64,000 nt of DNA from assembly GCA_938074205.1 (NCBI GenBank), contig CALJES010000012.1, positions 278,840 to 342,839 on the forward strand, read 5' to 3'. Origin of the DNA: an uncultured bacterium. GTDB taxonomy: Bacteria > Armatimonadota > UBA5829. A model generated the notes under the pieces. It had not been told where the DNA came from. It saw only the letters and a program-made list of their open reading frames with translations, and ran no database searches. Made by a program: the position numbers and the translations under genes. Positions 3-35,064 of the stretch are shown piece after piece (the stretch's first letter is position 1; each line of letters begins with the position of its first letter).

Positions 3-398
3 TTGTTCGCAGCAGACTTCTTGCGTAGCAGCGCTGCTCAGTCGCATATCGGCAGATTGATCGAGGCCGCAGCCGGTGGAAAACTGGCAGATGTGGTAGT
101 TGTTGCCCAGCGGAAGCTGGCGCTCAATCTAATGCTTGTATCAACAAGTGTCTGGAGCAAATTGCTGGGGCTGAGTATAGCAGCTTCAGCGGTTATTTAC
201 CTAGTTTCGAGGAGCACACTCTCAGCTGACTCGAAGGTAGGCAGTAAGATCGACAGTGTCGCCCTGAAGGGTGGAGCTGTTGCTGTGTTTGCAGCTTTTA
301 TCTTCAATGACTCAGGTGTTCTGGCGGCAGCCTCTTGCGCGGTTGTACTTTGGTCTTATATGGCATTATGGTACCACGATCTAGCCAAAGCATCTTGA
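3..398 (+). CDS. C-terminal fragment of a hypothetical integral membrane protein; the gene starts upstream of the window.
   Basis: The ORF is open from the window edge. Translation shows several hydrophobic helices, and I recognise no family. Confidence 0.3.
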   Translation: MFAADFLRSSAAQSHIGRLIEAAAGGKLADVVVVAQRKLALNLMLVSTSVWSKLLGLSIAASAVIYLVSRSTLSADSKVGSKIDSVALKGGAVAVFAAFIFNDSGVLAAASCAVVLWSYMALWYHDLAKAS

Positions 399-22266: not shown

Positions 22267-25200
22267 ATGTTCAAACGGAATAAAGTGGCGAAGAAAATGG
22301 GTGCTCCAGCATTTTCCAATCAAGAAACGACAAGACGATTCATAGATAACTGTATCAGCGCATTGGAAGACGAAATCCAAGCCGCTGAACACACCGGAGG
22401 TTCCAAAAGGACAGTCGCACTAGCTAACGGACGCTTTCAAAGAACGATTGATCGAACTCATATATACGTGTTTGTAGCATCTGATGGCATGCCGCCGTCC
22501 TACGAAGATGCTCCTGTGCAAATATTGGTTTCAGGACAGGAGATAGACGGATCTGTTGTAGGCATAGAGGAGTTTGAGGTGATAATTGCTCTCGAAGAAT
22601 ACGTGGGAATGTACGTAGCTACAGCAGAACTCGTCGTCGACCTAACGTTCATACTTGAGAAGCTCAGAGAGCTTTTGACTGAGCGGGCCTCTGCTTTAGA
22701 GGTCCACGATGTAACCCTGAAAGTCTTTGGATTTGGTCAGCCACGTATCTCTTTAAGTTCTGCAAAACACCTTTCTGCTGACGAATGTTACATGAACGAA
22801 GCCCAGAAGCACGCATTGGGCAAGTGTCTAGGCAGCGACTTCGTAATGGTTTGGGGACCTCCCGGTACAGGAAAAACGCACGTTTTGGCGAGGGTTCTCG
22901 GCGAGCAGATTTTGCAAGGACAGTCCATTGCTCTACTCTCGAACACTAACATCGCTGTAGACCAAGCGCTTGAGCAGCTACTTAAACTCTGTGAAAATAA
23001 CGAAAGACTCAAGTGTTTGAAAGACGAAGGAAAGATAATACGCTTGGGCACACCTCAATTGGAAAGCGTCTTATCCATTACTCTCGATAGGATGGCTGAA
23101 CGCATAGCGTCCCAATTGAAAGACGAACTAACAAGGCTAAAGCGGCGCCGGGATAGACGAACTAAACGCTTGGAACAAGTGAGGTCGAGGATTAAAAGGC
23201 TTAGGGAATTGCTGGAGTTACATCGTAGACTCAATGAAGTAGTGGACTCGGAAAAACGCATTGCCCACGAGCTGAAAAAAGTGTGCCACCAATACCACGT
23301 GCTTGCAGACGAGCTTCTTGCGCTAAATTTGCGACTGTCCGTCATCCAAAAAAGGCGCCGCCTGCTACGCCTGATATACAGGTCCAAACAGCGCCGCTTG
23401 GAGCAGCTCGTGACTCAAAAAGAAGAGGGTTGCAGAAAAATAAACGAGAATATGCGTAAGTTAACCGAAAAAGTCTTGGCTCACCGCGCTGAGGTCGAAA
23501 AACTTCGCCAACGGATGGCCACCTTGACAAATGGCGTAGTCGATCCAGCGAAATGGGAAACCTGTCTGGCTCGGCTTACAAGTCTTGAGACGAGGCTACA
23601 AAATGAGATGGCCATCTTCGCAGCGAGAATCCACGAGCTTGAAATCGCTCTCCAGACAGTTGAAGCAAGAATTCTTAACGAGGCTCTCCTTGTAGGGTGT
23701 ACCTGCGCTAAGAGCACCCTCGACGTTAATGTCAGTAGCCGTAGGTTTTCAACGGTGGCTGTAGATGAATCCAGTATGGTCTCCCTTCCGCAAACACTCT
23801 GGTGTACGAACTTGGCTAATAAAAGGTTCCTTTGTTTTGGGGACTTTCGCCAGTTGCCACCGATCACCTTGATCAAACCAGATTCTGGGCAGGAGTCATA
23901 TGAGATCATGCATAGTAGCATATTCGAAAGACATCGGTTGGGCGAGAGTTTACAGGACGCCCTTGGGGATCCGCGGGTAGCTTTGCTAAATGAACAATAT
24001 CGTATGAATCCAGAAATATGTGAGCTCGTGAACAAATGGATGTATGGGGGCCGCTTGATTACGGTACCTGGGACCGGCTGCGGAGCTATGCTGTCCCAGG
24101 ATCCACCTCTTGCACTGGTTGACACGTCGTTATTTGGTGCATGGAGCGACAAGAACGCGGATTTTTCGTGGTACAATTGGCACCACGCATTTGTGGTGCT
24201 GGAACTCGTGCGAGAATTGAGAAATGATTCAGGTGCCCAGGCAGATCAAGGTGCGCTAGTGCTGATACTTACGCCGTACCGCGCTCAGGTTCGCCTAATT
24301 CGAGCATTGCTGGAAGAAGCAGACCTTCAAGAGAACGCGAGAGTATCAACCGTCTGGGGTTGCCAAGGAACAGAAGCAAGCGTTGTCATATTTGATACCG
24401 TGTGTGCCCCTCCGTACAGCAAACCGGGACGATGGTTTCTGCATGAACCGGGGCCAGCGGACGGTGCCAGGTTAATTAACGTCGCCATAACAAGAGCCAA
24501 GGACAAGTTGTATATAGTGGGGCATAGGCAGCACCTTGTGCGGAGCTGCCCATCAACCGCGTTCATAAGGAAAATTCTGGATTGCTTAATCGCAAATGAC
24601 CATATTATCGATTCACGGGAAATCGCGAAAAACTTGATACCGGAAGAACCAGCCGACGATGGTGGCTTTCCTATTGGCGCATTTGGGACTGCCTCGTTCA
24701 AGTTGTTCGACCAAGAGACGTTTCTAGAGGCGTTTATAAGCGATCTTTGTCAACTTCCGCCAGGATCGCGGATAACCATCTTCCGGCCGTTCTTAAGTGG
24801 GGAATCCTTTGCACGTTGCAAGTCGCATTTTTGCACATTGCTCAAAAATGGCTGCAGCATCGAGCTATTTACACGAGATCGCTCTGCGCAGAACAGGGGC
24901 AGGCCACTCGACGCTGTCGATTCTATGATTGATGAGCTGGAAAGATTGGGGGCAAAGGTTGGGATAGATTCGTATCTGCGGGGCCAAAGATTCGAGCACC
25001 ACAAGTTGGCTTTTCTCGAGTACCCGCAGGAATCAGACCGAAGAAGCGAACCTGTTATCTGGATCGACAGCAAAAGGATTCTTGGTCACCGCTCTGGTTG
25101 GGAGACTATGCTGCGAATTCAGTCGCGCAATGTGTACAGCGTCTTTGCGAGTATCATCGGTTTAGAAGACCGGCGCAAGCACGTACCAGTACACGTTTTG

Positions 25201-25521
25201 ATAAGCAAACTGGAGAACACACTTCAGCGACAGCTGCAAGCAATTTGTCCTGTTCACAAATTACACATGAAGCTTCGTTTCTCGGTTAGAAGTAGTAAAA
25301 AGTCATTTTTTATGTGTTGTCCTACGTGGAGCAAAAGCAGATGTGACCAGAAGATGAATGTGTCGGTTGAAGAGCTTAACAAAGCTCTGGAGTTCATTCG
25401 GGCGACGTGCTTGGAACCCGGCTGCGACGCTCCGTTGGATGCAAGACGAGGTCGTGAAGGCATATACATAAGGTGCTCCGAAGGACACTATGTCCCCCTT
25501 ATTTCATACTTCCGTAGATAA
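22267..25521 (+). CDS. Upf1-like (DNA2/NAM7) SF1 helicase with a roughly 250-aa coiled-coil insertion and a roughly 330-aa C-terminal region with an HxK motif and a Cys/His cluster.
   Basis: Helicase motifs are I 'GPPGTGKT', II 'VAVDESSMV', III 'GDFRQLPPI', IV 'LNEQYRMNPEI', V 'ILTPYRAQV' and 'VWGCQGTEASVVIFD', and VI 'INVAITRAKDKLYIVG'. A heptad-rich Arg/Leu/Glu segment sits between motifs I and II. The C-terminal region contains 'FEHHKLAFLEY' and 'CCPTWSKSRC...CLEPGC...CSEGH'. Confidence 0.7.
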   Translation: MFKRNKVAKKMGAPAFSNQETTRRFIDNCISALEDEIQAAEHTGGSKRTVALANGRFQRTIDRTHIYVFVASDGMPPSYEDAPVQILVSGQEIDGSVVGIEEFEVIIALEEYVGMYVATAELVVDLTFILEKLRELLTERASALEVHDVTLKVFGFGQPRISLSSAKHLSADECYMNEAQKHALGKCLGSDFVMVWGPPGTGKTHVLARVLGEQILQGQSIALLSNTNIAVDQALEQLLKLCENNERLKCLKDEGKIIRLGTPQLESVLSITLDRMAERIASQLKDELTRLKRRRDRRTKRLEQVRSRIKRLRELLELHRRLNEVVDSEKRIAHELKKVCHQYHVLADELLALNLRLSVIQKRRRLLRLIYRSKQRRLEQLVTQKEEGCRKINENMRKLTEKVLAHRAEVEKLRQRMATLTNGVVDPAKWETCLARLTSLETRLQNEMAIFAARIHELEIALQTVEARILNEALLVGCTCAKSTLDVNVSSRRFSTVAVDESSMVSLPQTLWCTNLANKRFLCFGDFRQLPPITLIKPDSGQESYEIMHSSIFERHRLGESLQDALGDPRVALLNEQYRMNPEICELVNKWMYGGRLITVPGTGCGAMLSQDPPLALVDTSLFGAWSDKNADFSWYNWHHAFVVLELVRELRNDSGAQADQGALVLILTPYRAQVRLIRALLEEADLQENARVSTVWGCQGTEASVVIFDTVCAPPYSKPGRWFLHEPGPADGARLINVAITRAKDKLYIVGHRQHLVRSCPSTAFIRKILDCLIANDHIIDSREIAKNLIPEEPADDGGFPIGAFGTASFKLFDQETFLEAFISDLCQLPPGSRITIFRPFLSGESFARCKSHFCTLLKNGCSIELFTRDRSAQNRGRPLDAVDSMIDELERLGAKVGIDSYLRGQRFEHHKLAFLEYPQESDRRSEPVIWIDSKRILGHRSGWETMLRIQSRNVYSVFASIIGLEDRRKHVPVHVLISKLENTLQRQLQAICPVHKLHMKLRFSVRSSKKSFFMCCPTWSKSRCDQKMNVSVEELNKALEFIRATCLEPGCDAPLDARRGREGIYIRCSEGHYVPLISYFRR

Positions 25522-27004: not shown

Positions 27005-27526
27005 CTAGCTCAACTCCATTGGCTACTGCCGGTGTATACCATTCGCTTCGATACCATGCCTGTCCATAAGTTAGTGAAGCCGGTTTAGCCCGCTAGGCAT
27101 CGAACGATGCCGTGTGTGAAACGCTTATAGTAATATGGTCTGGAAAAACAGACGATTGCTACCTTGCTATTCACATTATACGCCAGCCTGGACAGCAAAA
27201 GCTGGCGCGAACACCGGATGTCGCAAAATTTATCTCATTCTCCTCACCTTCGAGCACCTTGGAAGCTATTGGAATGGCAGTCGGAGTAAACCACCGATGG
27301 TCATTTCAAAGTTTGATATCTACCGTTTACGGCTCAATGTGAAAGTTCTTATCCGCATCATCCAGGCGGCAAAGCGTATCCTGAGCTGACTCCAGTCCCT
27401 AGTGAATGCCAGGGTCAAGCTAAGGCGAACTCTTCCAGGTCATTGCTAAGTCCAGCGGACAGGTGTAGGGTGACTTTTCTTTTGTATAATGCGGTGCAAA
27501 TGCGCTGGATGCAGGATCAAAAACGC

Positions 27527-28099
27527 TCAGCTGCGTCGCTCTCTTACGGGCCCAAGGGATATGTCTATGTCATCAGTCAGAAGCTCAGAACCACTCTGTC
27601 GCGCCTGGATCTCACCGCGCCTAGAATCCTCAACTGTCAGCAGGATAGAGCGTGTTCCTAAAGGAAACGATTTTTGATTTCGGCGCGCCCAAGCCGCAGC
27701 ATCTTTGTTTACGGGGCTTGCCAAGTTGTAGCTTTTGTACTGGATCATATCGGCGATGTGAACAATGACATCTACCAAAGTAACACCAGGAGACCAGTAA
27801 TCGCCTATGCAGACGTAATCTCCTATGTTCGGGTGCCATATCGGGGTGCGCATCGTGCATCTTGGACCCTGCCTCGGGTAACCGGTCGACAGTACTATAT
27901 CCACAACGTGCTTCTCTGACACCACAGCTCTACTCGATGCCTCATCCCAAACAAGTCCCGTCAGCCTGTAAGTAACTCGGTAATACCAAGGCGGGTTACC
28001 CTGAATCGGTTCTACACACACAAACTCGTTGCCGGAAAGTTCCGATAAGATCTTTTCGTATTCGCGACGCAGACGCCTTGTCCGAATTGTCTCGCTCAC
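27527..28099 (-). CDS. Prokaryotic ubiquitin-conjugating enzyme (E2/UBC fold) homolog.
   Basis: The UBC signature is 'RLRREYEKI...YPRQGPRCTMRTPIWHPNIGDYVCIGDYWSPGVTL'. This gives the HPN motif, a candidate catalytic Cys 7 residues later, and WSP. Confidence 0.75.
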   Translation of the reverse strand: MSETIRTRRLRREYEKILSELSGNEFVCVEPIQGNPPWYYRVTYRLTGLVWDEASSRAVVSEKHVVDIVLSTGYPRQGPRCTMRTPIWHPNIGDYVCIGDYWSPGVTLVDVIVHIADMIQYKSYNLASPVNKDAAAWARRNQKSFPLGTRSILLTVEDSRRGEIQARQSGSELLTDDIDISLGPVRERRS

Positions 28100-28114
28100 G
28101 ATACCGCACCTGCC

Positions 28115-29536
28115 TCACTTTGGCTTTCCCAGACTTGCGCAGATACGCTTGACCTTCCGCCGGTCGCTTTCAGACAGCGCATGGAAAAGTCTGTCATACG
28201 GCTCTTCGCGACAGATCACTCCGTAAGCTATCTCCCGACTTCGTTCACCGCGTAGCCACCGAACAGCTTTCTCATGCCAAGCGTTCGAACCATGCTCGTC
28301 ATGAACAGCTACGCTTAGCTTCAGCGACCGCACAATGTCCCTTACGCGGCAGGCTCTCTCGATCCGCTTCTCACGGCTTGCAGCCGCCCGCTTGTAGACT
28401 TGGAGGGCTTGTTTAACGTAGTCCGGCGAGGCTACAATAATATCAGGTCGACGACTATTGGATGTGAATGAGCTTTCTATGTCTTTCACCAGCGACGGTT
28501 CCTGCGCCCGCGGTAGCTGCCGGGCGAGACGCGCCGCTGCAGCTAACTGCAAGTTGATTCTATCGAGCTTTTCACCCTCTTCGTTGCCAATTTCGCTATC
28601 GGACAGCGCCGCGCTTACACGCTGAAACTCCAAAAACGCTTGTCGGTTTTCCGGGTTAGCTGAAAGTTCGAGCCTAAGCAACCTCTCACCGCCTGTAAGA
28701 TCACCTATCGAAAGCATTTCAATAGCGGTTTCCAGGTACGTAGTAGGATGTGTTGCCTGCCTCCCGCGGAAAACGACAAGCCACAAAGCGATCTGCGAAG
28801 CCGCCAATAGTATAATTAGTGACCAGATAATCCCAGGAACTCTACCGACGTTAAGGCGATTATTCATTTGTGCTGGTCCTCTAGCCGTGACCGTGGAATG
28901 ATCTGACGTTGCAGATAGCTCCCTCATACATTCCCGCAGTGCTTCTTCATTGCTGCGTGGGGCGAATACATAGAATCCGGAAATGCGTACAAGAGACTCC
29001 TGCGACCACTCAAAAATAGCCCATTCGCCCAACTTGGAGTCGACAACCATCGCTATCTGGTAGGAATCAGCGAAGTAGTGCTGGTGAATGAATTCGTCTT
29101 CCTTGGAAAGAAACGCTCCTAGCCCTGGGTGGCTGTGATACCAACCAACGATTCTCTCGCGTGAGTACCGCTGGGCAAGCTGCGCGTGCACCTGCTCCCA
29201 AGCCTCGTGGGTGAAAGTGAGCGATATACCGGTGCTTTCGGCCATCTCTGCTCGGATAATGTCGTTGACCTGAATAAAGTAACCCCTGCCAAACTTGCAG
29301 AACTCGCCTACCAACACTCCGCCGAGCTCACGCTCCGGATCTGCGAGAAGATGTTCCCTAATTGCCCGGACAGCTTGTTCACTGATGAAAACGGGATACA
29401 AATCATCGGCCGGCTGACCGCACGCGCAAACTCTCATCGCCCTGTTTTCAAGTGGGCTCTTTCTTTTGACGGCAGATAAGCGAGTTGACCTGCCTAGCTC
29501 CAGTTGTATGTCGTCGTTCTCTTCTTCGCGCTGCAT
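28115..29536 (-). CDS. JAB/JAMM (MPN+) metallo-isopeptidase with a TM helix and a roughly 220-aa C-terminal extension.
   Basis: JAMM motifs are 'ELGGVLVGE', 'HSHP' and 'SKED'. The predicted TM is 'VPGIIWSLIILLAASQIALWLVVF'. Confidence 0.75.
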   Translation of the reverse strand: MQREEENDDIQLELGRSTRLSAVKRKSPLENRAMRVCACGQPADDLYPVFISEQAVRAIREHLLADPERELGGVLVGEFCKFGRGYFIQVNDIIRAEMAESTGISLTFTHEAWEQVHAQLAQRYSRERIVGWYHSHPGLGAFLSKEDEFIHQHYFADSYQIAMVVDSKLGEWAIFEWSQESLVRISGFYVFAPRSNEEALRECMRELSATSDHSTVTARGPAQMNNRLNVGRVPGIIWSLIILLAASQIALWLVVFRGRQATHPTTYLETAIEMLSIGDLTGGERLLRLELSANPENRQAFLEFQRVSAALSDSEIGNEEGEKLDRINLQLAAAARLARQLPRAQEPSLVKDIESSFTSNSRRPDIIVASPDYVKQALQVYKRAAASREKRIERACRVRDIVRSLKLSVAVHDEHGSNAWHEKAVRWLRGERSREIAYGVICREEPYDRLFHALSESDRRKVKRICASLGKPK

Positions 29537-29554
29537 ACTCTCGAATGTGTCGAT

Positions 29555-30061
29555 TCAGATCACAAGCCGGATCAAGAAGACGATCCCGCTTGAGCTGATA
29601 CTGAAGAGCACAACCGCTGGTCCAAAGCAGTTTTCGAAAAAGCGGTTTTCCCTAGCTGTGAAACGACAGTGCACACAAATGATCTGATTCTGCTTCACCG
29701 GTCTTCCGCACTTTATGCACCGCAGAGGCTGATCACTTTCGTCTGTCAGGTCTGTAGGCGCAATGACAATACGGCCCTCTGCAGTAGGCGAAATGCGATC
29801 AGAGATCTGCCGGTTCCATATTGCCCAACCGTCGCAGCCGTATACAGAGCAGCGGCCGTTGGACTTCCAGCACTCAGCATGATGCATTACGCCGCACTTG
29901 GGACAGCGTATCGCTTCTTCTTTCGATTCGATCGGACTTAGACAGTATGGGCAGTTCAGGCTTTCGTTTGTTGATCTCACCTTTCCACTCGATCGAACGC
30001 TTTGGGTAGTTGGTCTATGGTATCGAGGCTGCCGGTAGGAACCGCCGCCACTATCAGCCAA
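29555..30061 (-). CDS. Membrane-anchored C4HC3 RING-variant-like zinc-finger protein (paralog 2), with a second CxxC...CxxC ribbon and a C-terminal TM.
   Basis: Cys/His spacing is 'CPYC..(13)..CPKCGVMHHAECWKSNGRCSVYGC', then 'CIKCGRPVKQNQIICVHC', then the hydrophobic tail 'AVVLFSISSSGIVFLIRLVI'. The 5' end overlaps the upstream paralog by 85 nt, so the true start may be internal or non-ATG. Confidence 0.5.
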   Translation of the reverse strand: MADSGGGSYRQPRYHRPTTQSVRSSGKVRSTNESLNCPYCLSPIESKEEAIRCPKCGVMHHAECWKSNGRCSVYGCDGWAIWNRQISDRISPTAEGRIVIAPTDLTDESDQPLRCIKCGRPVKQNQIICVHCRFTARENRFFENCFGPAVVLFSISSSGIVFLIRLVI

Positions 30062-30459
30062 GCTAACAGAACTGCTGAGACGAGCAACATAATCAGTATA
30101 GGTCCCACGTTCTTTGCGTCCTGGTGTTCTAGGATAGATGTGGGCCTACACGTATTGCAGTAGAGTTCCCCTGGAGGAACCTGCTTCCCGCAGTGCACAC
30201 ACGGGTTGGAAACGCTCATCGCTTTTCTGTTACTTGCAGATTCGACTGCCTCACGCGTTAGAAGGAGTCTACTCCTTGCCGGTGGTGTATCGAAGTTGAT
30301 TTCGATTATCCGTCTTGCTTTGGGACATTCCTTTGCACAGCAGCCGCGGTGCTCTTCCCAACAATCGAAGTGATACACCGAGCCGCATGCGTCGCAGGTC
30401 ACAGTTTTTTCCTGCAGGGCAATTTCGCTCATACAATAGCGACAACTTCTGTCTGCCAC
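29977..30459 (-). CDS. Membrane-anchored C4HC3 RING-variant-like zinc-finger protein (paralog 1).
   Basis: Cys/His spacing is 'CRYC..(12)..CDACGSVYHFDCWEEHRGCCAKEC', then 'CVHCGKQVPPGELYCNTC', then the TM 'ILIMLLVSAVLLAWLIVAAV'. Confidence 0.55.
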   Translation of the reverse strand: MADRSCRYCMSEIALQEKTVTCDACGSVYHFDCWEEHRGCCAKECPKARRIIEINFDTPPARSRLLLTREAVESASNRKAMSVSNPCVHCGKQVPPGELYCNTCRPTSILEHQDAKNVGPILIMLLVSAVLLAWLIVAAVPTGSLDTIDQLPKAFDRVER

Positions 30460-30509
30460 TTCTGCTCACGTGTTAAAGTCGTTTGCTACGCGCCGCGCAA
30501 GCTATTCTC

Positions 30510-31721
30510 TTACGAACCCGGCAGTACGGATTTGGCATCTGATGATATCTCAATCTGCACGCAGCCTCTTTGCGATACCGCAGGAAGAATCTCCAATTGA
30601 CCAAAACCAAGCTCTTTTAGTGTGATATCTTCGTAGGGCGCGCCGCGCATATACTCGACATCTACTTCCGGCAGTCGCTCTGCGCCGCAGTCGGGACATC
30701 TTGCCTCTTCAGCGCGGATGCTATGTGCCAATCGGTAGAACGGTTGCGTGGAGCCACACCGATTGCACTTAAGTGATTTTACCATCTCAGAAGGTAGACC
30801 AATCACAGGGTTTGCACCCACGTAACGTGTTGCGAGATCCGCAACCTCAGCCAGCGTTGCTGATTCGCTGTTGAGCTGGGTTTCTACGATGTTTTCGAAC
30901 AACTCGTGGCTCATGCAGTCTTCGTTTCTCACGTAGTCAATAATGAAGCAGTCGTAGGTTGTGGCGTCAAAGTAGAAAGCCTTCCCGACCAGGGTAGGGC
31001 TCAGCCTCTGTCCTGGCGTTTGCAGGCAGGAGCGCGAGTGCAAGAGCTTTACGGCTTCGTGTACCTGGATGCCGGCTATTATGGATGCCATTGTAGGCGT
31101 CGTAGGAGTCCTGTCTTGAATATGAGCTTGAGCTGCCAGGATACCGCACGACTCACGCCACGCCATAATTTTTCTGTCCTGTTCGCCGAGCGTACACTCG
31201 TAGCAAGGGGTATCTGGGGGCACGAAGCTGCGCACAATACCGCGAGTGTCATCGACCGCTCCATCTACCCAGGGTGTGCCAACCTTCCAGCAAGCTCGGT
31301 TGATTGCAAGCCGCGCCTCACGGTTATCCAGTCCGCCGATCACGACATCCACGCGCCTGAAAATGCCAAGACCGATGTCCCTAGTTACATCAGCCTCCAG
31401 GCCGATGAACCGGCAGTCAGGATTCAGCGCCTCAGCTGCGCTCGCCGCTACTTGGGCTTTGGGCTTGCCTTCGTCTTGGGCTCTGAATAATGGACTTCGC
31501 GAAAGGTTGGAGAGCTCAACACGATCGAAGTCGACTATGATCACCGTCCCTGCGCCCAATAGTGCAAGGTTCTTTATTATCTCATTGCCAAGCGCACCGG
31601 CTCCAACGACCATGATTGATGCGGCGCGTAGGACGTCTTGGTTCCACCAGGAGATCAAGCGTAAACGCCAATATCGATCTTCTCCGATGTCAATCGGGAA
31701 GTGGGATTTCTCAGCAGACAC
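30510..31721 (-). CDS. E1-like adenylating enzyme (ThiF/MoeB/UBA family) with a C-terminal zinc-ribbon extension.
   Basis: The nucleotide-binding motif is 'VVGAGALGNEIIKNLALLGAGTVIIVDFDRVELSNLSRS'. CxxC is 'CYEC', and a later ribbon reads 'CNRCG...CPDCG'. The gene overlaps the Ubl gene by 11 nt. Confidence 0.8.
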   Translation of the reverse strand: MSAEKSHFPIDIGEDRYWRLRLISWWNQDVLRAASIMVVGAGALGNEIIKNLALLGAGTVIIVDFDRVELSNLSRSPLFRAQDEGKPKAQVAASAAEALNPDCRFIGLEADVTRDIGLGIFRRVDVVIGGLDNREARLAINRACWKVGTPWVDGAVDDTRGIVRSFVPPDTPCYECTLGEQDRKIMAWRESCGILAAQAHIQDRTPTTPTMASIIAGIQVHEAVKLLHSRSCLQTPGQRLSPTLVGKAFYFDATTYDCFIIDYVRNEDCMSHELFENIVETQLNSESATLAEVADLATRYVGANPVIGLPSEMVKSLKCNRCGSTQPFYRLAHSIRAEEARCPDCGAERLPEVDVEYMRGAPYEDITLKELGFGQLEILPAVSQRGCVQIEISSDAKSVLPGS

Positions 31722-31998
31722 AAAAGCACCCGCCTGCGGTGATCTCAGGTATTAGTCTGAGAACGTCCCCGTCTAGGACGTTGCATTCTGAAAGCGTGAG
31801 ATTGTCCAGCAAATGCCTGCCGGTTCCTTTGTGCAGGAGTTTGTAAGAAATCGGCGCGCCTGCGGTGTTGACCACTGGTAGGTAAAGAACCTCGACTAGT
31901 TTGTCAATAATTCTACTGATAGGCACGTCGTCTGGGAGCGTCGCATCTTGTTCTTTGCTTCCCGTTACGTCTATGATTGTGACGTTAACCTTACCCAT
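31711..31998 (-). CDS. Ubiquitin-like beta-grasp protein (95 aa) ending in ...AGG followed by a CFCVC tail.
   Basis: The beta-grasp pattern is 'KVNVTIIDVTGSKEQDATLPDDVPISRIIDKLVEVL...GDVLRLIPEITAGG'. A penultimate diglycine precedes a 5-residue Cys-rich extension. It is the first gene of the operon and overlaps E1. Confidence 0.6.
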   Translation of the reverse strand: MGKVNVTIIDVTGSKEQDATLPDDVPISRIIDKLVEVLYLPVVNTAGAPISYKLLHKGTGRHLLDNLTLSECNVLDGDVLRLIPEITAGGCFCVC

Positions 31999-32171
31999 TG
32001 GTGTTCACATTCCAATTCGGTTAATATTTCAGACGTTACATCGAGCAGAGTTGCCGAGATCTTGGCGTCCGCGTATTCGCCGCACCGCGGAAACCTTCCC
32101 TGCTGTATTATACCTCATTCCGTTAGTAAGATTCTTGGCGAATCAACAGGGAAGGGATGTTTTGCAGTACG

Positions 32172-32200
32172 TTGACAACCGTAAAACCTGATGTTATTCT
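32172..32200 (+). promoter_or_regulatory. Candidate sigma70 promoter (TTGACA-N17-TATTCT) for the GAF-PP2C gene, followed by a GC hairpin in the 5'UTR.
   Basis: I read ttgaca at 32172-32177 and tattct at 32195-32200. The hairpin CCTCGCGC...GCGCGAGG lies at 32201-32234. Confidence 0.3.
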
Positions 32201-32248
32201 CCTCGCGCTGCTGGTCTGAGTCGCGGCGCGAGGCAGCAAAAGAAGAAC

Positions 32249-34537
32249 ATGGAGAAACAGTCAATGCTCAAGGGAGTAGCACGCGCGGATGGGAGTGATT
32301 TCCCTGAAGACAGATACACTGCTATAGTGGCGCTATCGCATCTTTCTGAGAGGTTGGCTTCCGTAGAGTCGAAAAAGGCTTTCGTCATAGCTGCAGAAAC
32401 GGCCGCCACCTTGCTCCGAATGTCTTCTGTGCTCATATTTACAAAGGAAACCGACGGCCGGCTTGAGCTCCAGGCAGTGTATGCTGATTCGGCATCTGAA
32501 GAACTGGTCAGCGCATCGGGCAAAATAGCTCAGGAAGCGCTGAGTGTCAGCTCGCCGCTTTTGATTCCCAACACCGCGGCAACATCTTCTACTGCCGCGA
32601 AAATTATCCAGCGCAACGGGGTAGCGTCCTTGATATGTGTGCCAATGAGAATCGGCGGAACGGCATTGGGGGCGATCGTATGCCTTTCCGAGCAGGTCCG
32701 CAGTTTTTCACCGAGAGACATCGAACTCTTACACGTGATCGCATCTCATGCTGCCATAGCGGCGATGCGAACGAGAGCAGGCACCGAACGGCAGACACTA
32801 CCCAGCAGCGATGATCTTCTGGCGCTTGCGGACAGAAAGATTCGAGAGCTCTCGCTTCTCAACCAAATAAGCGAGGCAATGAACTCCACGTTGGAGCTCG
32901 ATGCGGTGCTCGACATCGCTTTGGAAGAATGCCTCGCGGCGATAGACGCCGACGCCGGCTCGCTGATGTTGATAAACGAGGATACGGGCAAGCTTGAGAT
33001 CGCGGCGTCGCGTGGTCTGCCGGAGGAACTGGTCGAGTCTACCTCGCAGGAGATCGGGCAGAGTATTGCCGGCTGGGTGGCTGAGCACGGTGAGAGCGTT
33101 CTCGTTACGGACGCACGCAATGACGACCGTTTTGAGATGCCATTCTATCGCGATGCCATCACTTCGTCCGCCTCGGTGCCGCTGAAGTCCAGAAACGGCT
33201 GCATTGGCGTGCTCAACGTTAACACTACGCGGCCTGATCGGATCTTCGACGAACGCGACCTCCAGTTTCTACAGACTATAGCAAACCAAATGGCTGCTGC
33301 TATCCAGAACGCCAGACTCTACACGCGCGTTCGCCGACGAACCCAACAACTCGACGGCTTGCTGAGGGTTTCGCGCAGCGTGACCTCCACGCTGAGCTTG
33401 GAAGATCGCTTGAAGCTCTTGAGCGAGGAAATGTGTAAGCTGCTGGAGTTTGATGTCTGCGTGATATTCCTAGTGGACGAAATTACAGGCAGGCTGCGGC
33501 ACGGAGTCGGCAGAGGGCTGAGAACGCGCTACAGATTCACCTACTATAACTTAGCAAATCCTCTGGCCCAGAAGGTTCTCAAAACGCGCAGAACGGTGTA
33601 TTTGAAGGATATCAATTCTTCGCCCACTGCGGCAAGCGATGTGTCGAAATCGGAGCGATTGACGTGTGCATTGGGACTGCCGCTGAGGAGCAATGGGAGG
33701 ATAGTAGCTGTTGCAACGCTTTTCGCTCGGGCTCCGCAAGAGCTACCACCGTCCAGACGTGCAGCATTGAAAATGCTAGCCGACTTGGCGGGCGTTGCCA
33801 TACACAACGCTTTGGCATATCAAAATAAGTATAGAGTGGCTTCATTGGTTCAAAGCAGGTTGGTACCCGCCGACGCCCCGACGGTTGACGGGCTCGAGAT
33901 AGGGCATAAGTTCTTCTCGGTGCGCGAGGTGGGCGGCGATTACTACGATTTCATTGTGCTTAATGATCGGCAGATCGGGATTGTAGTCGCCGATGTTTCG
34001 GGAAGCGATGTAGAAGCTGCCGAACACACCGCCATGAGCAGGCATGTTATACGTGCCTACGCACGGGAGTTTCCGCGTCCCGCTGATGTGCTCTATAAGA
34101 CGAACAACGTTATTTGCGAACTGACAAGTGCCGAGACGTTCGTAAGTGCATTCTACTGTGTAATCGACTTGGGTCGCGAGTGCTTCACGCACGCCAACGC
34201 CGGCTGTGAACCCCCGCTTCTCTACTGCGCAGCTCACGGAAACGTTCGGGACCTGCACACAAGCGGTGTTCTGCTCGGAGTAGCTGCAGGAATGCAATAC
34301 GCGGAGCAAGAGGTGTCCTTCAGATCTAAAGACGTTCTTGTCGCGTTCACCGACGGTGTAACTGAAGCATCCTGTGGTAATTCTCGTTTTGGAACGGACG
34401 CAGTGAAGCGCGTATTGTCGGCTAACGCTCATCTGGGTGCCCAGGCGATCGCGGACAAGCTCTTCGACGCTATTATGGAGTTTACCAACGGCAAGGTTTC
34501 CGATGACGTAGCGGTAGTCGTGGCAAAACGAGTGTAG
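32249..34537 (+). CDS. Multi-GAF-domain PP2C-type serine phosphatase (SpoIIE/RsbU family).
   Basis: The 762-aa product has 3 or more GAF-like segments. The C-terminal PP2C/SpoIIE domain carries 'GGDYYDF', 'VADVSG' and 'FTDGVTEA'. Confidence 0.75.
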   Translation: MEKQSMLKGVARADGSDFPEDRYTAIVALSHLSERLASVESKKAFVIAAETAATLLRMSSVLIFTKETDGRLELQAVYADSASEELVSASGKIAQEALSVSSPLLIPNTAATSSTAAKIIQRNGVASLICVPMRIGGTALGAIVCLSEQVRSFSPRDIELLHVIASHAAIAAMRTRAGTERQTLPSSDDLLALADRKIRELSLLNQISEAMNSTLELDAVLDIALEECLAAIDADAGSLMLINEDTGKLEIAASRGLPEELVESTSQEIGQSIAGWVAEHGESVLVTDARNDDRFEMPFYRDAITSSASVPLKSRNGCIGVLNVNTTRPDRIFDERDLQFLQTIANQMAAAIQNARLYTRVRRRTQQLDGLLRVSRSVTSTLSLEDRLKLLSEEMCKLLEFDVCVIFLVDEITGRLRHGVGRGLRTRYRFTYYNLANPLAQKVLKTRRTVYLKDINSSPTAASDVSKSERLTCALGLPLRSNGRIVAVATLFARAPQELPPSRRAALKMLADLAGVAIHNALAYQNKYRVASLVQSRLVPADAPTVDGLEIGHKFFSVREVGGDYYDFIVLNDRQIGIVVADVSGSDVEAAEHTAMSRHVIRAYAREFPRPADVLYKTNNVICELTSAETFVSAFYCVIDLGRECFTHANAGCEPPLLYCAAHGNVRDLHTSGVLLGVAAGMQYAEQEVSFRSKDVLVAFTDGVTEASCGNSRFGTDAVKRVLSANAHLGAQAIADKLFDAIMEFTNGKVSDDVAVVVAKRV

Positions 34538-34659
34538 TATTGAGGCTGCCACTCGCTTGGCAGTGAGTGTTACCCATAGAGCAGCGCGCAATACCTGCCA
34601 AAAATTAATAATGGATGTAAGGGGACGAGCACGTCCCTTAGTTTGAGGAGTGCAGTAGG

Positions 34660-35064
34660 TTGAGGCAAGGTGAGAGTATTCATTTGGAAATTCCCAGCTC
34701 ACCGGAGTACGTTGCTGTTGTCAGACGCGCTATTGAGGGAATCGCACAAAGAATGCATTTCAACGCAGCTCAGATTGAAGACTTGAAGGTAGCTGTAGGC
34801 GAAGCCTGCGCAAACGCGATTCTGCATGGGTGTCCGCGGTCTGAAGAAAACAATGTAGAAGTGCATTGTGAAGTACGCGCTGACGGTTTGCTTGTCGAAG
34901 TGAGAAACACCGTGGAAGGTCAATGCCGTCCGCACATACCAGCAAAGCCCGAGTTAAACCGCGAAGGAGGGCTGGGGCTCTATATCATTAACCAGCTTAT
35001 GGATGAAGTGCAGTTCACCTGGACCAACAGGACCGCAGTGCTACGTATGCTCAAGCGCCTGTGA
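34660..35064 (+). CDS. Anti-sigma regulatory factor/serine-protein kinase (RsbW/SpoIIAB-like, GHKL ATPase).
   Basis: The 134-aa HATPase_c domain has 'VGEACANAILHG' (N-box) and 'GGLGLYII' (G-box). Confidence 0.7.
   Translation: MRQGESIHLEIPSSPEYVAVVRRAIEGIAQRMHFNAAQIEDLKVAVGEACANAILHGCPRSEENNVEVHCEVRADGLLVEVRNTVEGQCRPHIPAKPELNREGGLGLYIINQLMDEVQFTWTNRTAVLRMLKRL

Follow-up and report, generated by a model that had tools for sequence, protein, structure and literature searches.

Can a bacterium encode, within a single compact gene cluster, every core part of a ubiquitin-type conjugation cascade, including RING fingers that might serve as its E3 ligases? The question is raised by a stretch of 64,000 nucleotides (nt) from an uncultured member of the Armatimonadota (UBA5829; assembly GCA_938074205.1, contig CALJES010000012.1), which as a whole we call the window. 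At positions 27527-31998, on the minus strand, the list of open reading frames (ORFs) contains six tightly packed co-directional genes in the order ubiquitin-like protein (Ubl), activating enzyme (E1), RING1, RING2, JAB peptidase and conjugating enzyme (E2) (Table 1). Based on the analyses described here, the operon probably encodes a self-contained and reversible cascade, in which the Ubl would be passed from E1 to E2 and then, with the help of the RING proteins, to targets at the cytoplasmic face of the cell membrane. It is a real, well-formed example of a kind of system that has been predicted computationally and is experimentally unstudied, and it is not categorically new.

The six products fall in the families that a preliminary description, made from the sequence alone, had expected, each scoring above its curated Pfam cut-off. 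The gene arrangement was likewise as first described, with an 11-nt overlap between the Ubl and E1 genes and a 15-nt gap between JAB and E2; in addition, E1 and RING1 are separated by 50 nt, RING1 and RING2 overlap by 4 nt, and RING2 and JAB lie 18 nt apart. The whole set occupies 4.5 kb, has a GC content of 0.53 and a base composition equal to that of its flanks, and contains each part once (RING as two paralogues); no extra copy of any component was found in the 64-kb window. The longest ORF of RING2 starts upstream of the start that we adopt: GTG 29980 is the most likely one, because the resulting product of 141 amino acids (aa) fits the 140-142 aa of its orthologues and because this codon overlaps the RING1 stop as GTGA. 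In the public gene calls for this contig, RING1 begins nine codons late, which removes its first CxxC, and RING2 is not called; therefore, existing annotation would show the operon without RING genes. A 15-billion-protein collection contains no exact sequence of either RING protein with the limits given here.

The E1 and the E2 carry their signature residues. For all components, conservation was measured with hidden Markov models built from alignments and applied to 92 loci, which gave 70 to 103 homologues per component. The E1 (Pfam ThiF, 1.2e-53, 182 bits against a cut-off of 28) is ThiF-like and contains the CxxC noted before, here C173-Y-E-C176, and among proteins of solved structure it comes closest, by sequence, to the active adenylation domains of Uba7 (1e-31) and Uba1 (1e-24), with ThiF (8e-21) and MoeB (4e-17) scoring lower. 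In 70 homologues, the adenylation-domain glycines G40/G42/G45, C173/C176, C192, C269/H272 and the ribbon cysteines C319/C322/C342/C345 are 98-100% conserved, and C192, in the motif R-x-S-C, is itself 100% conserved. Cys192 sits 16 residues past CYEC, at the position of the crossover-loop cysteine of ThiF and MoeB, which is why we take it as the candidate E1 thioester site. The short C-terminal domain of the E1 may be a ubiquitin-fold domain.

The E2 (UQ_con, 1.8e-10, 41 bits against a cut-off of 27) has the anticipated HPN...C...WSP signature, as H89-P-N91, C97 and W102-S-P, and its HPN, C97 and W102 are invariant in 33 aligned homologues and 100% conserved in 71. An AlphaFold2 model built on 33 homologues reached a predicted local distance difference test score (pLDDT) of 85. 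Compared with the PDB using Foldseek, this model matched UbcH5, Ubc13 and EhUbc5 with probability 1.0, E-values of about 1e-7 and template modelling scores of 0.65-0.70 on the target, so that the predicted structure is that of a UBC fold, and a profile search of PDB sequences returned eukaryotic E2s only. The profile and fold checks that the preliminary description had named as able to refute it, so far as carried out, all came out in its favour. An identical E2 is encoded on contigs of 161 kb and 417 kb from an Armatimonadota-like organism, and the closest named relatives are Armatimonadota metagenome-assembled genomes (MAGs). After a disordered, variable linker of low model confidence, the protein ends in a tail, I-x-L-G-P-x-R-x-R, that nearly all of the close homologues from the E2 search share (about 52-79% identity), whereas the most distant ones (e.g., P0092, P0095, P0096 and P0098) lack it or have a divergent form.

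The modifier was proposed to be a beta-grasp protein with a C-terminal GG. The first part holds well (Pfam YukD, 3.8e-14, 53.6 bits against a cut-off of 27; the ubiquitin profile gives a weak match, 0.008 and 16.3 bits, below its cut-off of 25.4). The second is literally true of the window copy, which ends ...EITAG89-G90-CFCVC, but the conserved end is Ala-Gly rather than the Gly-Gly of the ubiquitin family, and the second Gly is not conserved. PEITAG is invariant across 72 Ubl clusters and in 29 aligned homologues, in which K15 and K53 are invariant too. Among about 70 homologues, at least eight finish exactly at AG and none at AGG; the residue after AG is Gly in about half of them and otherwise A, S, E, C, R, N or T; and the tails beyond AG measure 0 to 31 aa, as would be expected of a processed precursor. 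Given the invariant PEITAG, the ends at AG and the variable tails, the activated residue is most likely Gly89 and GCFCVC a pro-peptide, presumably removed by the JAMM peptidase, in the way that Rpn11 trims the pro-ubiquitin of Caldiarchaeum (PMC5654768). A single terminal Gly still fits E1 chemistry. Between genomes, the Ubl (79-93% identity) is more conserved than the E2 (58-79%), the E1 (51-75%), the RING proteins (41-68%) and the JAB peptidase (34-64%), a pattern expected of a modifier that has to fit many partners.

Removal of the modifier would fall to the JAB protein (Prok-JAB, 5.6e-11, 42.8 bits against 25; JAB, 1.9e-10, 41 bits against 22.5), which, among proteins of solved structure, comes nearest to Rpn11 (5e-10) and to the Caldiarchaeum Rpn11-like protein (1.6e-8). 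The JAMM isopeptidase motif E...HSHP...SxxD that had been read from the sequence is present as E70, H134-S-H136-P and S144-K-E-D147; the pattern E...H-x-H-x7-S-x2-D is intact, and E70, H134, H136, S144 and D147 are 98-100% conserved in 84 homologues. Beyond a predicted transmembrane helix, the protein continues into a conserved helical domain of about 215 aa that has no Pfam match at E<=10 (the best, TPR-like at 0.14, is unusable) and is confined to Armatimonadota-type operons with the gene order of the window. This domain is probably extracytoplasmic, as suggested by a JAB paralogue of other lineages that carries LysM at this place.

The two RING proteins had been described as paralogous C4HC3 fingers of RING-variant type. 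Both do carry the C4HC3 ligands, but their family is Prok-RING_1 (RING1, 3.1e-7, 30.7 bits; RING2, 2.9e-9, 37.2 bits; cut-off 29.1) and not RINGv, for which neither gave a Pfam match at E<=0.1; the ligand pattern is all that they have in common with RINGv and PHD fingers. In 103 domains, the eight ligands (in RING2, C10, C13, C26, C29, H34, C37, C44 and C49) are 99-100% conserved and W38 is 97% conserved. RING1 and RING2 are 24% identical and collinear, each consisting of the finger, a linker, a Cys4 zinc ribbon and a transmembrane helix. The duplication that separates them is old, since each paralogue has its own orthologues in five genomes, those of RING1 being 41-65% identical in the four other genomes.

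A point missing from the preliminary description is that three of the six products are probably anchored in the membrane. RING1, RING2 and JAB each contain one strongly hydrophobic 19-mer (Kyte-Doolittle 19-residue means of 2.96 for RING1 and 2.30 for RING2), and Ubl, E1 and E2 contain none; from these hydrophobic helices, the ubiquitin-like machinery is probably membrane-anchored. In relatives, RING proteins are fused to TM2, CD225, DUF4190 or Big_2 and JAB to LysM, and in human-gut contigs the Ubl itself extends beyond ITAG with a zinc ribbon and transmembrane helices. These fusions to membrane or extracytoplasmic modules indicate that the link to the membrane is a general property of the family.

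Together, these features suggest the following course of events. The membrane-anchored JAMM peptidase would trim GCFCVC off the Ubl precursor and expose Gly89 (...PEITAG), which the E1 would adenylate before holding the Ubl as a thioester on Cys192. The Ubl would then be handed to Cys97 of the UBC-fold E2. The tail-anchored RING-plus-zinc-ribbon proteins, singly or as a heterodimer, could bind the charged E2 at the membrane and stimulate attachment of the Ubl to lysine residues on targets in the membrane or close to it. Finally, the same JAMM peptidase could take the Ubl off again, and its C-terminal domain may couple this activity to the cell envelope.

Several points weigh against this model. 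The evidence is wholly computational, and the conjugates, thioesters and cleavage are predictions. Studied members of the YukD family work non-covalently in type VII secretion (T7SSb) (PMC12637312). Membrane topology is deduced from one hydrophobic segment per protein, and the charges flanking the JAB helix are balanced. In the neighbourhood and the 64-kb window, no target, proteasome-like partner or effector was found linked to the operon; for effectors, this agrees with the preliminary description, which had recognised none between the E1 gene and dacB. Consensus promoter and terminator scans gave counts no higher than in shuffled sequence, and Rfam had no match in the operon or in the divergent intergenic region (31999-32248); since these searches are uninformative, it is from gene spacing and conserved order that we infer one operon with a single transcript.

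Table 1. Features of the six-gene operon and of the adjoining intergenic region. Five-digit numbers are nucleotide positions in the window; others are residue numbers within the product.
Feature	Position	Strand	Remarks
Ubl precursor	31711-31998	-	95 aa; YukD-type beta-grasp
Ubl, predicted mature part	residues 1-89; Gly89 codon 31732-31734	-	ends ...LRLIPEITAG; from homologue conservation
Ubl, putative pro-peptide tail GCFCVC	residues 90-95; 31714-31731	-	variable among homologues
E1 activating enzyme	30510-31721	-	403 aa; ThiF
E1, anatomy	G40-x-G42-x-x-G45; C173-Y-E-C176; C269/H272		Rossmann adenylation domain (G40-x-G42-x-x-G45)
E1, candidate catalytic Cys192	31146-31148	-	motif R-E-S-C-G
E1, Cys4 zinc ribbon	C319, C322, C342, C345
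RING1	29977-30459	-	160 aa; Prok-RING_1
RING1, C4HC3 finger	C6, C9, C22, C25, H30, C33, C40, C45		N-terminal
RING1, Cys4 zinc ribbon	C87, C90, C101, C104
RING1, transmembrane helix	about 121-139		predicted; followed by tail of about 20 aa
RING2	29555-29980	-	141 aa from GTG 29980; longest ORF 29555-30061 (TTG 30061); Prok-RING_1
RING2, C4HC3 finger	C10, C13, C26, C29, H34, C37, C44, C49		with W38
RING2, zinc ribbon	C88, C91, C102, C105		the protein also has the motif E-N-C-x-G-P
RING2, transmembrane helix	123-141		predicted; closes the protein (tail anchor)
JAB/MPN+ (JAMM) metallopeptidase	28115-29536	-	473 aa; Prok-JAB/JAB
JAB, catalytic domain	about residues 45-215		E70, H134-S-H136-P, S144-K-E-D147
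JAB, transmembrane helix	residues 236-256	-	hydrophobic segment; predicted
JAB, C-terminal helical domain	residues 258-473; 28115-28765	-	about 215 aa; conserved
E2 conjugating enzyme	27527-28099	-	190 aa; UQ_con, UBC fold
E2, H89-P-N91	27827-27835	-	HPN motif
E2, catalytic Cys97	27809-27811	-	predicted; W102-S-P downstream
E2, C-terminal tail I-x-L-G-P-x-R-x-R	residues 182-189; 27533-27556	-	after disordered, variable, low-confidence linker
Divergent intergenic region, Ubl gene to GAF-PP2C gene	31999-32248	.	250 nt; presumed promoter region, from gene spacing only

The distribution of the module bears on what it might do. A scan of GTDB genomes seeded with the E2 returned two loci only, its peptide patterns being too specific, and a Ubl profile run against metagenome contigs did far better. 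It gave at least 472 relatives, part of them from the human gut. In a census of the fetched loci, the E1 gene comes immediately after that of the Ubl in 75 of 77, and among 38 Ubl loci with enough flanking sequence, 34 carry E1, E2, JAB and RING and 36 carry RING. The order Ubl-E1-RING-RING-JAB-E2 is also found in loci L001, L007, L008, L009, L013 and L018; L002 and L016 have it with a single RING. Thus, the six-gene order recurs in related, diverged Armatimonadota with different flanks, as the preliminary description had asked of a comparison between genomes. In L002 (6964-9992), which comes from a long-read MAG, both the E1 gene and the JAB gene are broken across two frames, probably by assembly indels and not because they are pseudogenes.

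What surrounds the module is less constant. In the window, L001 and L009, one side is occupied by a GAF-PP2C/RsbW-like pair and arg genes, and in the window and L001 the other side carries dacB; elsewhere, these are replaced by FeoAB/DtxR (L007 and L008) or S1/CoaE (L009). Divergent from the operon, the pair in the window (32249-35064, plus strand) encodes a triple-GAF PP2C (SpoIIE-type) phosphatase and an RsbW-like HATPase_c_2 kinase; it is complete in L009, and the L001 contig breaks within the GAF-PP2C gene. Because the flanks differ in this way, neither dacB nor the phosphatase pair is a conserved partner, and we rejected both as functional partners, linked as they are only in the closest relatives (L001 and L009); for the same reason, the pair is probably outside the system. 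Links to FHA and Ser/Thr kinase genes do occur in more distant relatives. The 522 nt between the E2 gene and dacB (27005-27526) hold no convincing ORF or Rfam match, and the corresponding gap in the closest relative, L001, is just 72 nt. Beyond dacB, two genes from the operon, a gene at 22267-25521 (plus strand) encodes a superfamily 1 (SF1) helicase of 1084 aa that matches the Mokosh models MkoA (2.2e-61) and MkoC (4.3e-32) and has an H-x-K (PLD-like) motif, '...RFEHHKLAFLE...', in its C-terminal part; it may be a type II Mokosh-like defence gene. A PIN_3 gene follows the helicase gene (L003, 15889-16350).

Among the relatives, other architectures include FHA proteins or E2-FHA fusions, a trypsin-like or M48 peptidase, VWA, a Ser/Thr kinase and JAB-LysM. 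In a human gut contig (L066, 5180-15831), the cluster reads RING-zinc ribbon-TM-Big_2, Ubl, E1, E2-FHA, trypsin-like peptidase, JAB, RING and JAB-LysM, with a phage-type integrase adjoining it; L054 and L062 have a similar architecture. Expanded clusters (L004 and L005) contain two E2s, three JABs, four to five RING ORFs, an M48 peptidase, VWA, FHA and RelA/SpoT-RyR, and that of L006 includes an FHA-ABC transporter and a Ser/Thr kinase. The gene content of these three loci hints at links to phospho-signalling in some lineages. The Ubl had no relative in 2.9 million viral contigs, 50,697 phage records and 72,556 plasmids, and the E2 had one distant plasmid relative, in Crinalium. This related cluster (L093, 38825-42302) lies on the mobilizable plasmid pCRI9333.03 of the cultured cyanobacterium Crinalium epipsammum PCC 9333 and consists of an E1, two small Ubl-like ORFs (one ending ...AEGGY), an E2 that is 30% identical to that of the window, and an MPN peptidase; downstream, there is only a weak RING-like match.

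These observations can be set against the idea that the operon serves in antiphage defence, in the manner of Bil or of the type II cyclic-oligonucleotide-based antiphage signalling system (CBASS), in which infection would lead to attachment of the Ubl to a phage or host protein, for instance at the membrane where the phage enters or assembles. The experimentally studied bacterial E1/E2/JAB operons (Bil, CBASS Cap2/Cap3) do defend against phage, and uncharacterised families are predicted to do likewise (PMC10557695; PMC11601603). The Mokosh-like helicase (MkoA 2e-61, MkoC 4e-32) and PIN_3 gene just past dacB point in the same direction, as do some distant relatives beside an integrase (L066) or a HEPN/nucleotidyltransferase pair (L011) and the E1-Ubl-E2-JAB cluster on the cyanobacterial plasmid. 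However, PADLOC recognised only E1 and JAB, each through generic models, and left the Ubl, the E2 and both RING proteins without a match; the module is syntenic in diverged Armatimonadota beside housekeeping genes (arg genes, FeoAB, ribosomal protein S1, CoaE); its composition does not depart from that of its flanks; the viral, phage and plasmid collections searched gave no relative of the Ubl; and this Ubl is unusually conserved, unlike fast-evolving defence components. We consider a defence function unlikely on these grounds.

Because of this housekeeping synteny, unremarkable composition, absence from the viral, phage and plasmid collections searched and conserved modifier, we think a resident role in regulation or quality control more likely than mobile antiphage defence. 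A possible, and tentative, form of it would be a resident membrane Ubl system without a role in defence, in which a tail-anchored RING E3 heterodimer tags membrane proteins with the Ala-Gly-ended YukD-type modifier for regulation or extraction, and a transmembrane Rpn11-like deubiquitinase with an envelope-sensing extracytoplasmic domain reverses the tagging; relatives would add phospho-dependent targeting through their E2-FHA fusions. The eukaryotic MARCH ligases, or those of endoplasmic-reticulum-associated degradation (ERAD), would be analogues of such a heterodimer. If this is true, bacteria evolved E3-dependent membrane signalling of the ubiquitin type either earlier than the archaeal and eukaryotic system or separately from it.

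Whether the RING proteins act as E3s is a separate matter, as the cascade could be real and these proteins PHD-like or zinc-ribbon membrane adaptors, or substrates, with the E2 transferring its cargo without an E3 as in Bil. C4HC3 is also the ligand pattern of PHD fingers. Pfam gave sub-threshold matches to PHD, C1, zf-RING_2 and zf-RING_16, and both sequence and fold searches placed RING-H2 and PHD fingers side by side with similarly weak scores, these two being the sole Foldseek matches; the model is thus that of a cross-brace RING/PHD-type finger, and the fold alone does not discriminate E3 action. Furthermore, no E3 is among the products of Bil operons as described, which are limited to Ubl, E2, JAB peptidase and E1 (PMC11601603). 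Against this, Prok-RING_1 is the one family for which the domain scores above the cut-off, a RING gene joins the Ubl/E1/E2/JAB set in nearly all well-flanked loci (the 36 of 38 given above), and the RING E3 domains of RNF165, ZNRF1 and RNF38, which have been solved with E2s, superpose on the model at 0.8-2.3 A root-mean-square deviation. In the archaeal system, moreover, a small RING protein does stimulate its E2 (PMC5654768). We therefore regard a purely non-E3 role of both RING proteins as quite improbable.

Finally, it is very hard to sustain that the Ubl is not conjugated at all and acts non-covalently, like YukD/EsaB in type VII secretion (PMC12637312), or as a ThiS/MoaD-type sulfur carrier with the E1, since, despite its place in the YukD family and the significant kinship of the E1 with ThiF and MoeB, the called genes within 10 kb carry no type VII secretion, thiamine or molybdopterin annotation (Pfam labels), the terminal Gly is invariant and followed by removable tails, the Ubl gene is accompanied by genes for an MPN+ peptidase, RING fingers and an E2 whose HPN and Cys are intact (34 of 38 well-flanked loci), and the E1 scores higher against Uba7/Uba1 than against ThiF/MoeB.

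How does the operon compare with known systems? An evolutionary survey reported no complete ubiquitin toolkit in any bacterium (Grau-Bové et al., PMC4327156), and RING-containing bacterial operons have been called uncharacterised (Chambers et al., PMC10557695). A role in phage defence has been demonstrated for Bil and CBASS, and the biochemistry of Bub is being studied (PMC10557695; PMC11601603). In the literature searched, we found no experimental test of a bacterial RING-containing Ubl operon, in agreement with the preliminary description, which held such neighbourhoods to be predicted in a few bacterial lineages and not known to have been studied at the bench. Bil (BilABCD) resembles the window operon in having separate Ubl, E2, JAB and E1 proteins and a ubiquitination-like pathway in bacteria; it has no RING protein, whereas the window has two RING genes, a Ubl with a single YukD-type domain and a resident, housekeeping-like context. 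PADLOC gave a partial generic BilD match for the E1 (4.6e-10), a generic match for JAB and no match to BilA, BilB or BilC, and we rejected filing the operon under Bil or CBASS on that account. Type II CBASS Cap2/Cap3 and Bub share the E1, E2 and JAB chemistry, but they use E1-E2 or Ubl-E2 and JAB-E1 fusions together with a CD-NTase (CBASS) or a DUF6527 serine protease (Bub). The proteins of the window are separate, and its operon and the surrounding 10 kb contain no CD-NTase or DUF6527 domain by Pfam label. Nor does any secretion-system label within that distance recall the type VII secretion context of YukD/EsaB.

A closer likeness is seen in the archaeon Candidatus Caldiarchaeum subterraneum, whose operon of ubiquitin, E1, E2, small RING finger protein and Rpn11 has been reconstituted in vitro (PMC5654768; PMC6043591), with its Rpn11 trimming the pro-ubiquitin (PMC5654768). 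Both are compact clusters with a tailed modifier precursor, an E1, a UBC-type E2, a small RING and an Rpn11-like JAMM protein. The archaeal modifier is a true ubiquitin with a Gly-Gly end, whereas that of the window is of YukD type with an Ala-Gly end; the archaeal RING and Rpn11 are soluble, whereas the RINGs and JAB of the window are predicted to be membrane-anchored; and one RING in an archaeal host contrasts with two paralogues in a bacterial host with no linked proteasome gene. The MARCH/RING-CH proteins, which are eukaryotic membrane-anchored C4HC3 RING E3s, share with RING1 and RING2 a C4HC3 finger on a protein with a transmembrane anchor, and this resemblance, which is only a lead, makes a role in modifying membrane proteins plausible. 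They differ in that the RINGs of the window end in C-x4-C ligands and follow the order RING, zinc ribbon and single C-terminal helix.

With its small size, the operon is a candidate on which a bacterial RING E3 cascade could be tested biochemically for the first time, and a practical one, since it spans only 4.5 kb, its active sites are intact and its E1, E2 and JAB are the most eukaryote-like by sequence. Reconstitution could show whether a bacterial RING is a true E3, to which partners a YukD-type modifier is attached, and whether ubiquitin-type tagging at membranes exists outside eukaryotes. As the family is widespread in metagenomes, any function established for this operon would probably extend to many uncultured bacteria.

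The nearest counterparts are the prokaryotic neighbourhoods of RING-finger, E1, E2, JAB and YukD-like Ubl genes that Burroughs, Iyer and Aravind reportedly predicted in 2011 in Mol Biosyst, in work said to be the source of Pfam PF14446 (Prok-RING_1) and to have described transmembrane helices on bacterial RING proteins. The likeness extends to the C4HC3 Prok-RING_1 finger, the ThiF-type E1, the UQ_con E2 with HPN, the JAB, the YukD-like Ubl and the RING transmembrane helices, and there is no difference in kind. Within this class, the window provides an Armatimonadota example with the fixed order Ubl-E1-RING-RING-JAB-E2, whose details include a Ubl that ends in Ala-Gly, two RING paralogues of ancient divergence, the conserved E2 tail, and a JAB with a transmembrane helix and a C-terminal domain outside the Pfam families.

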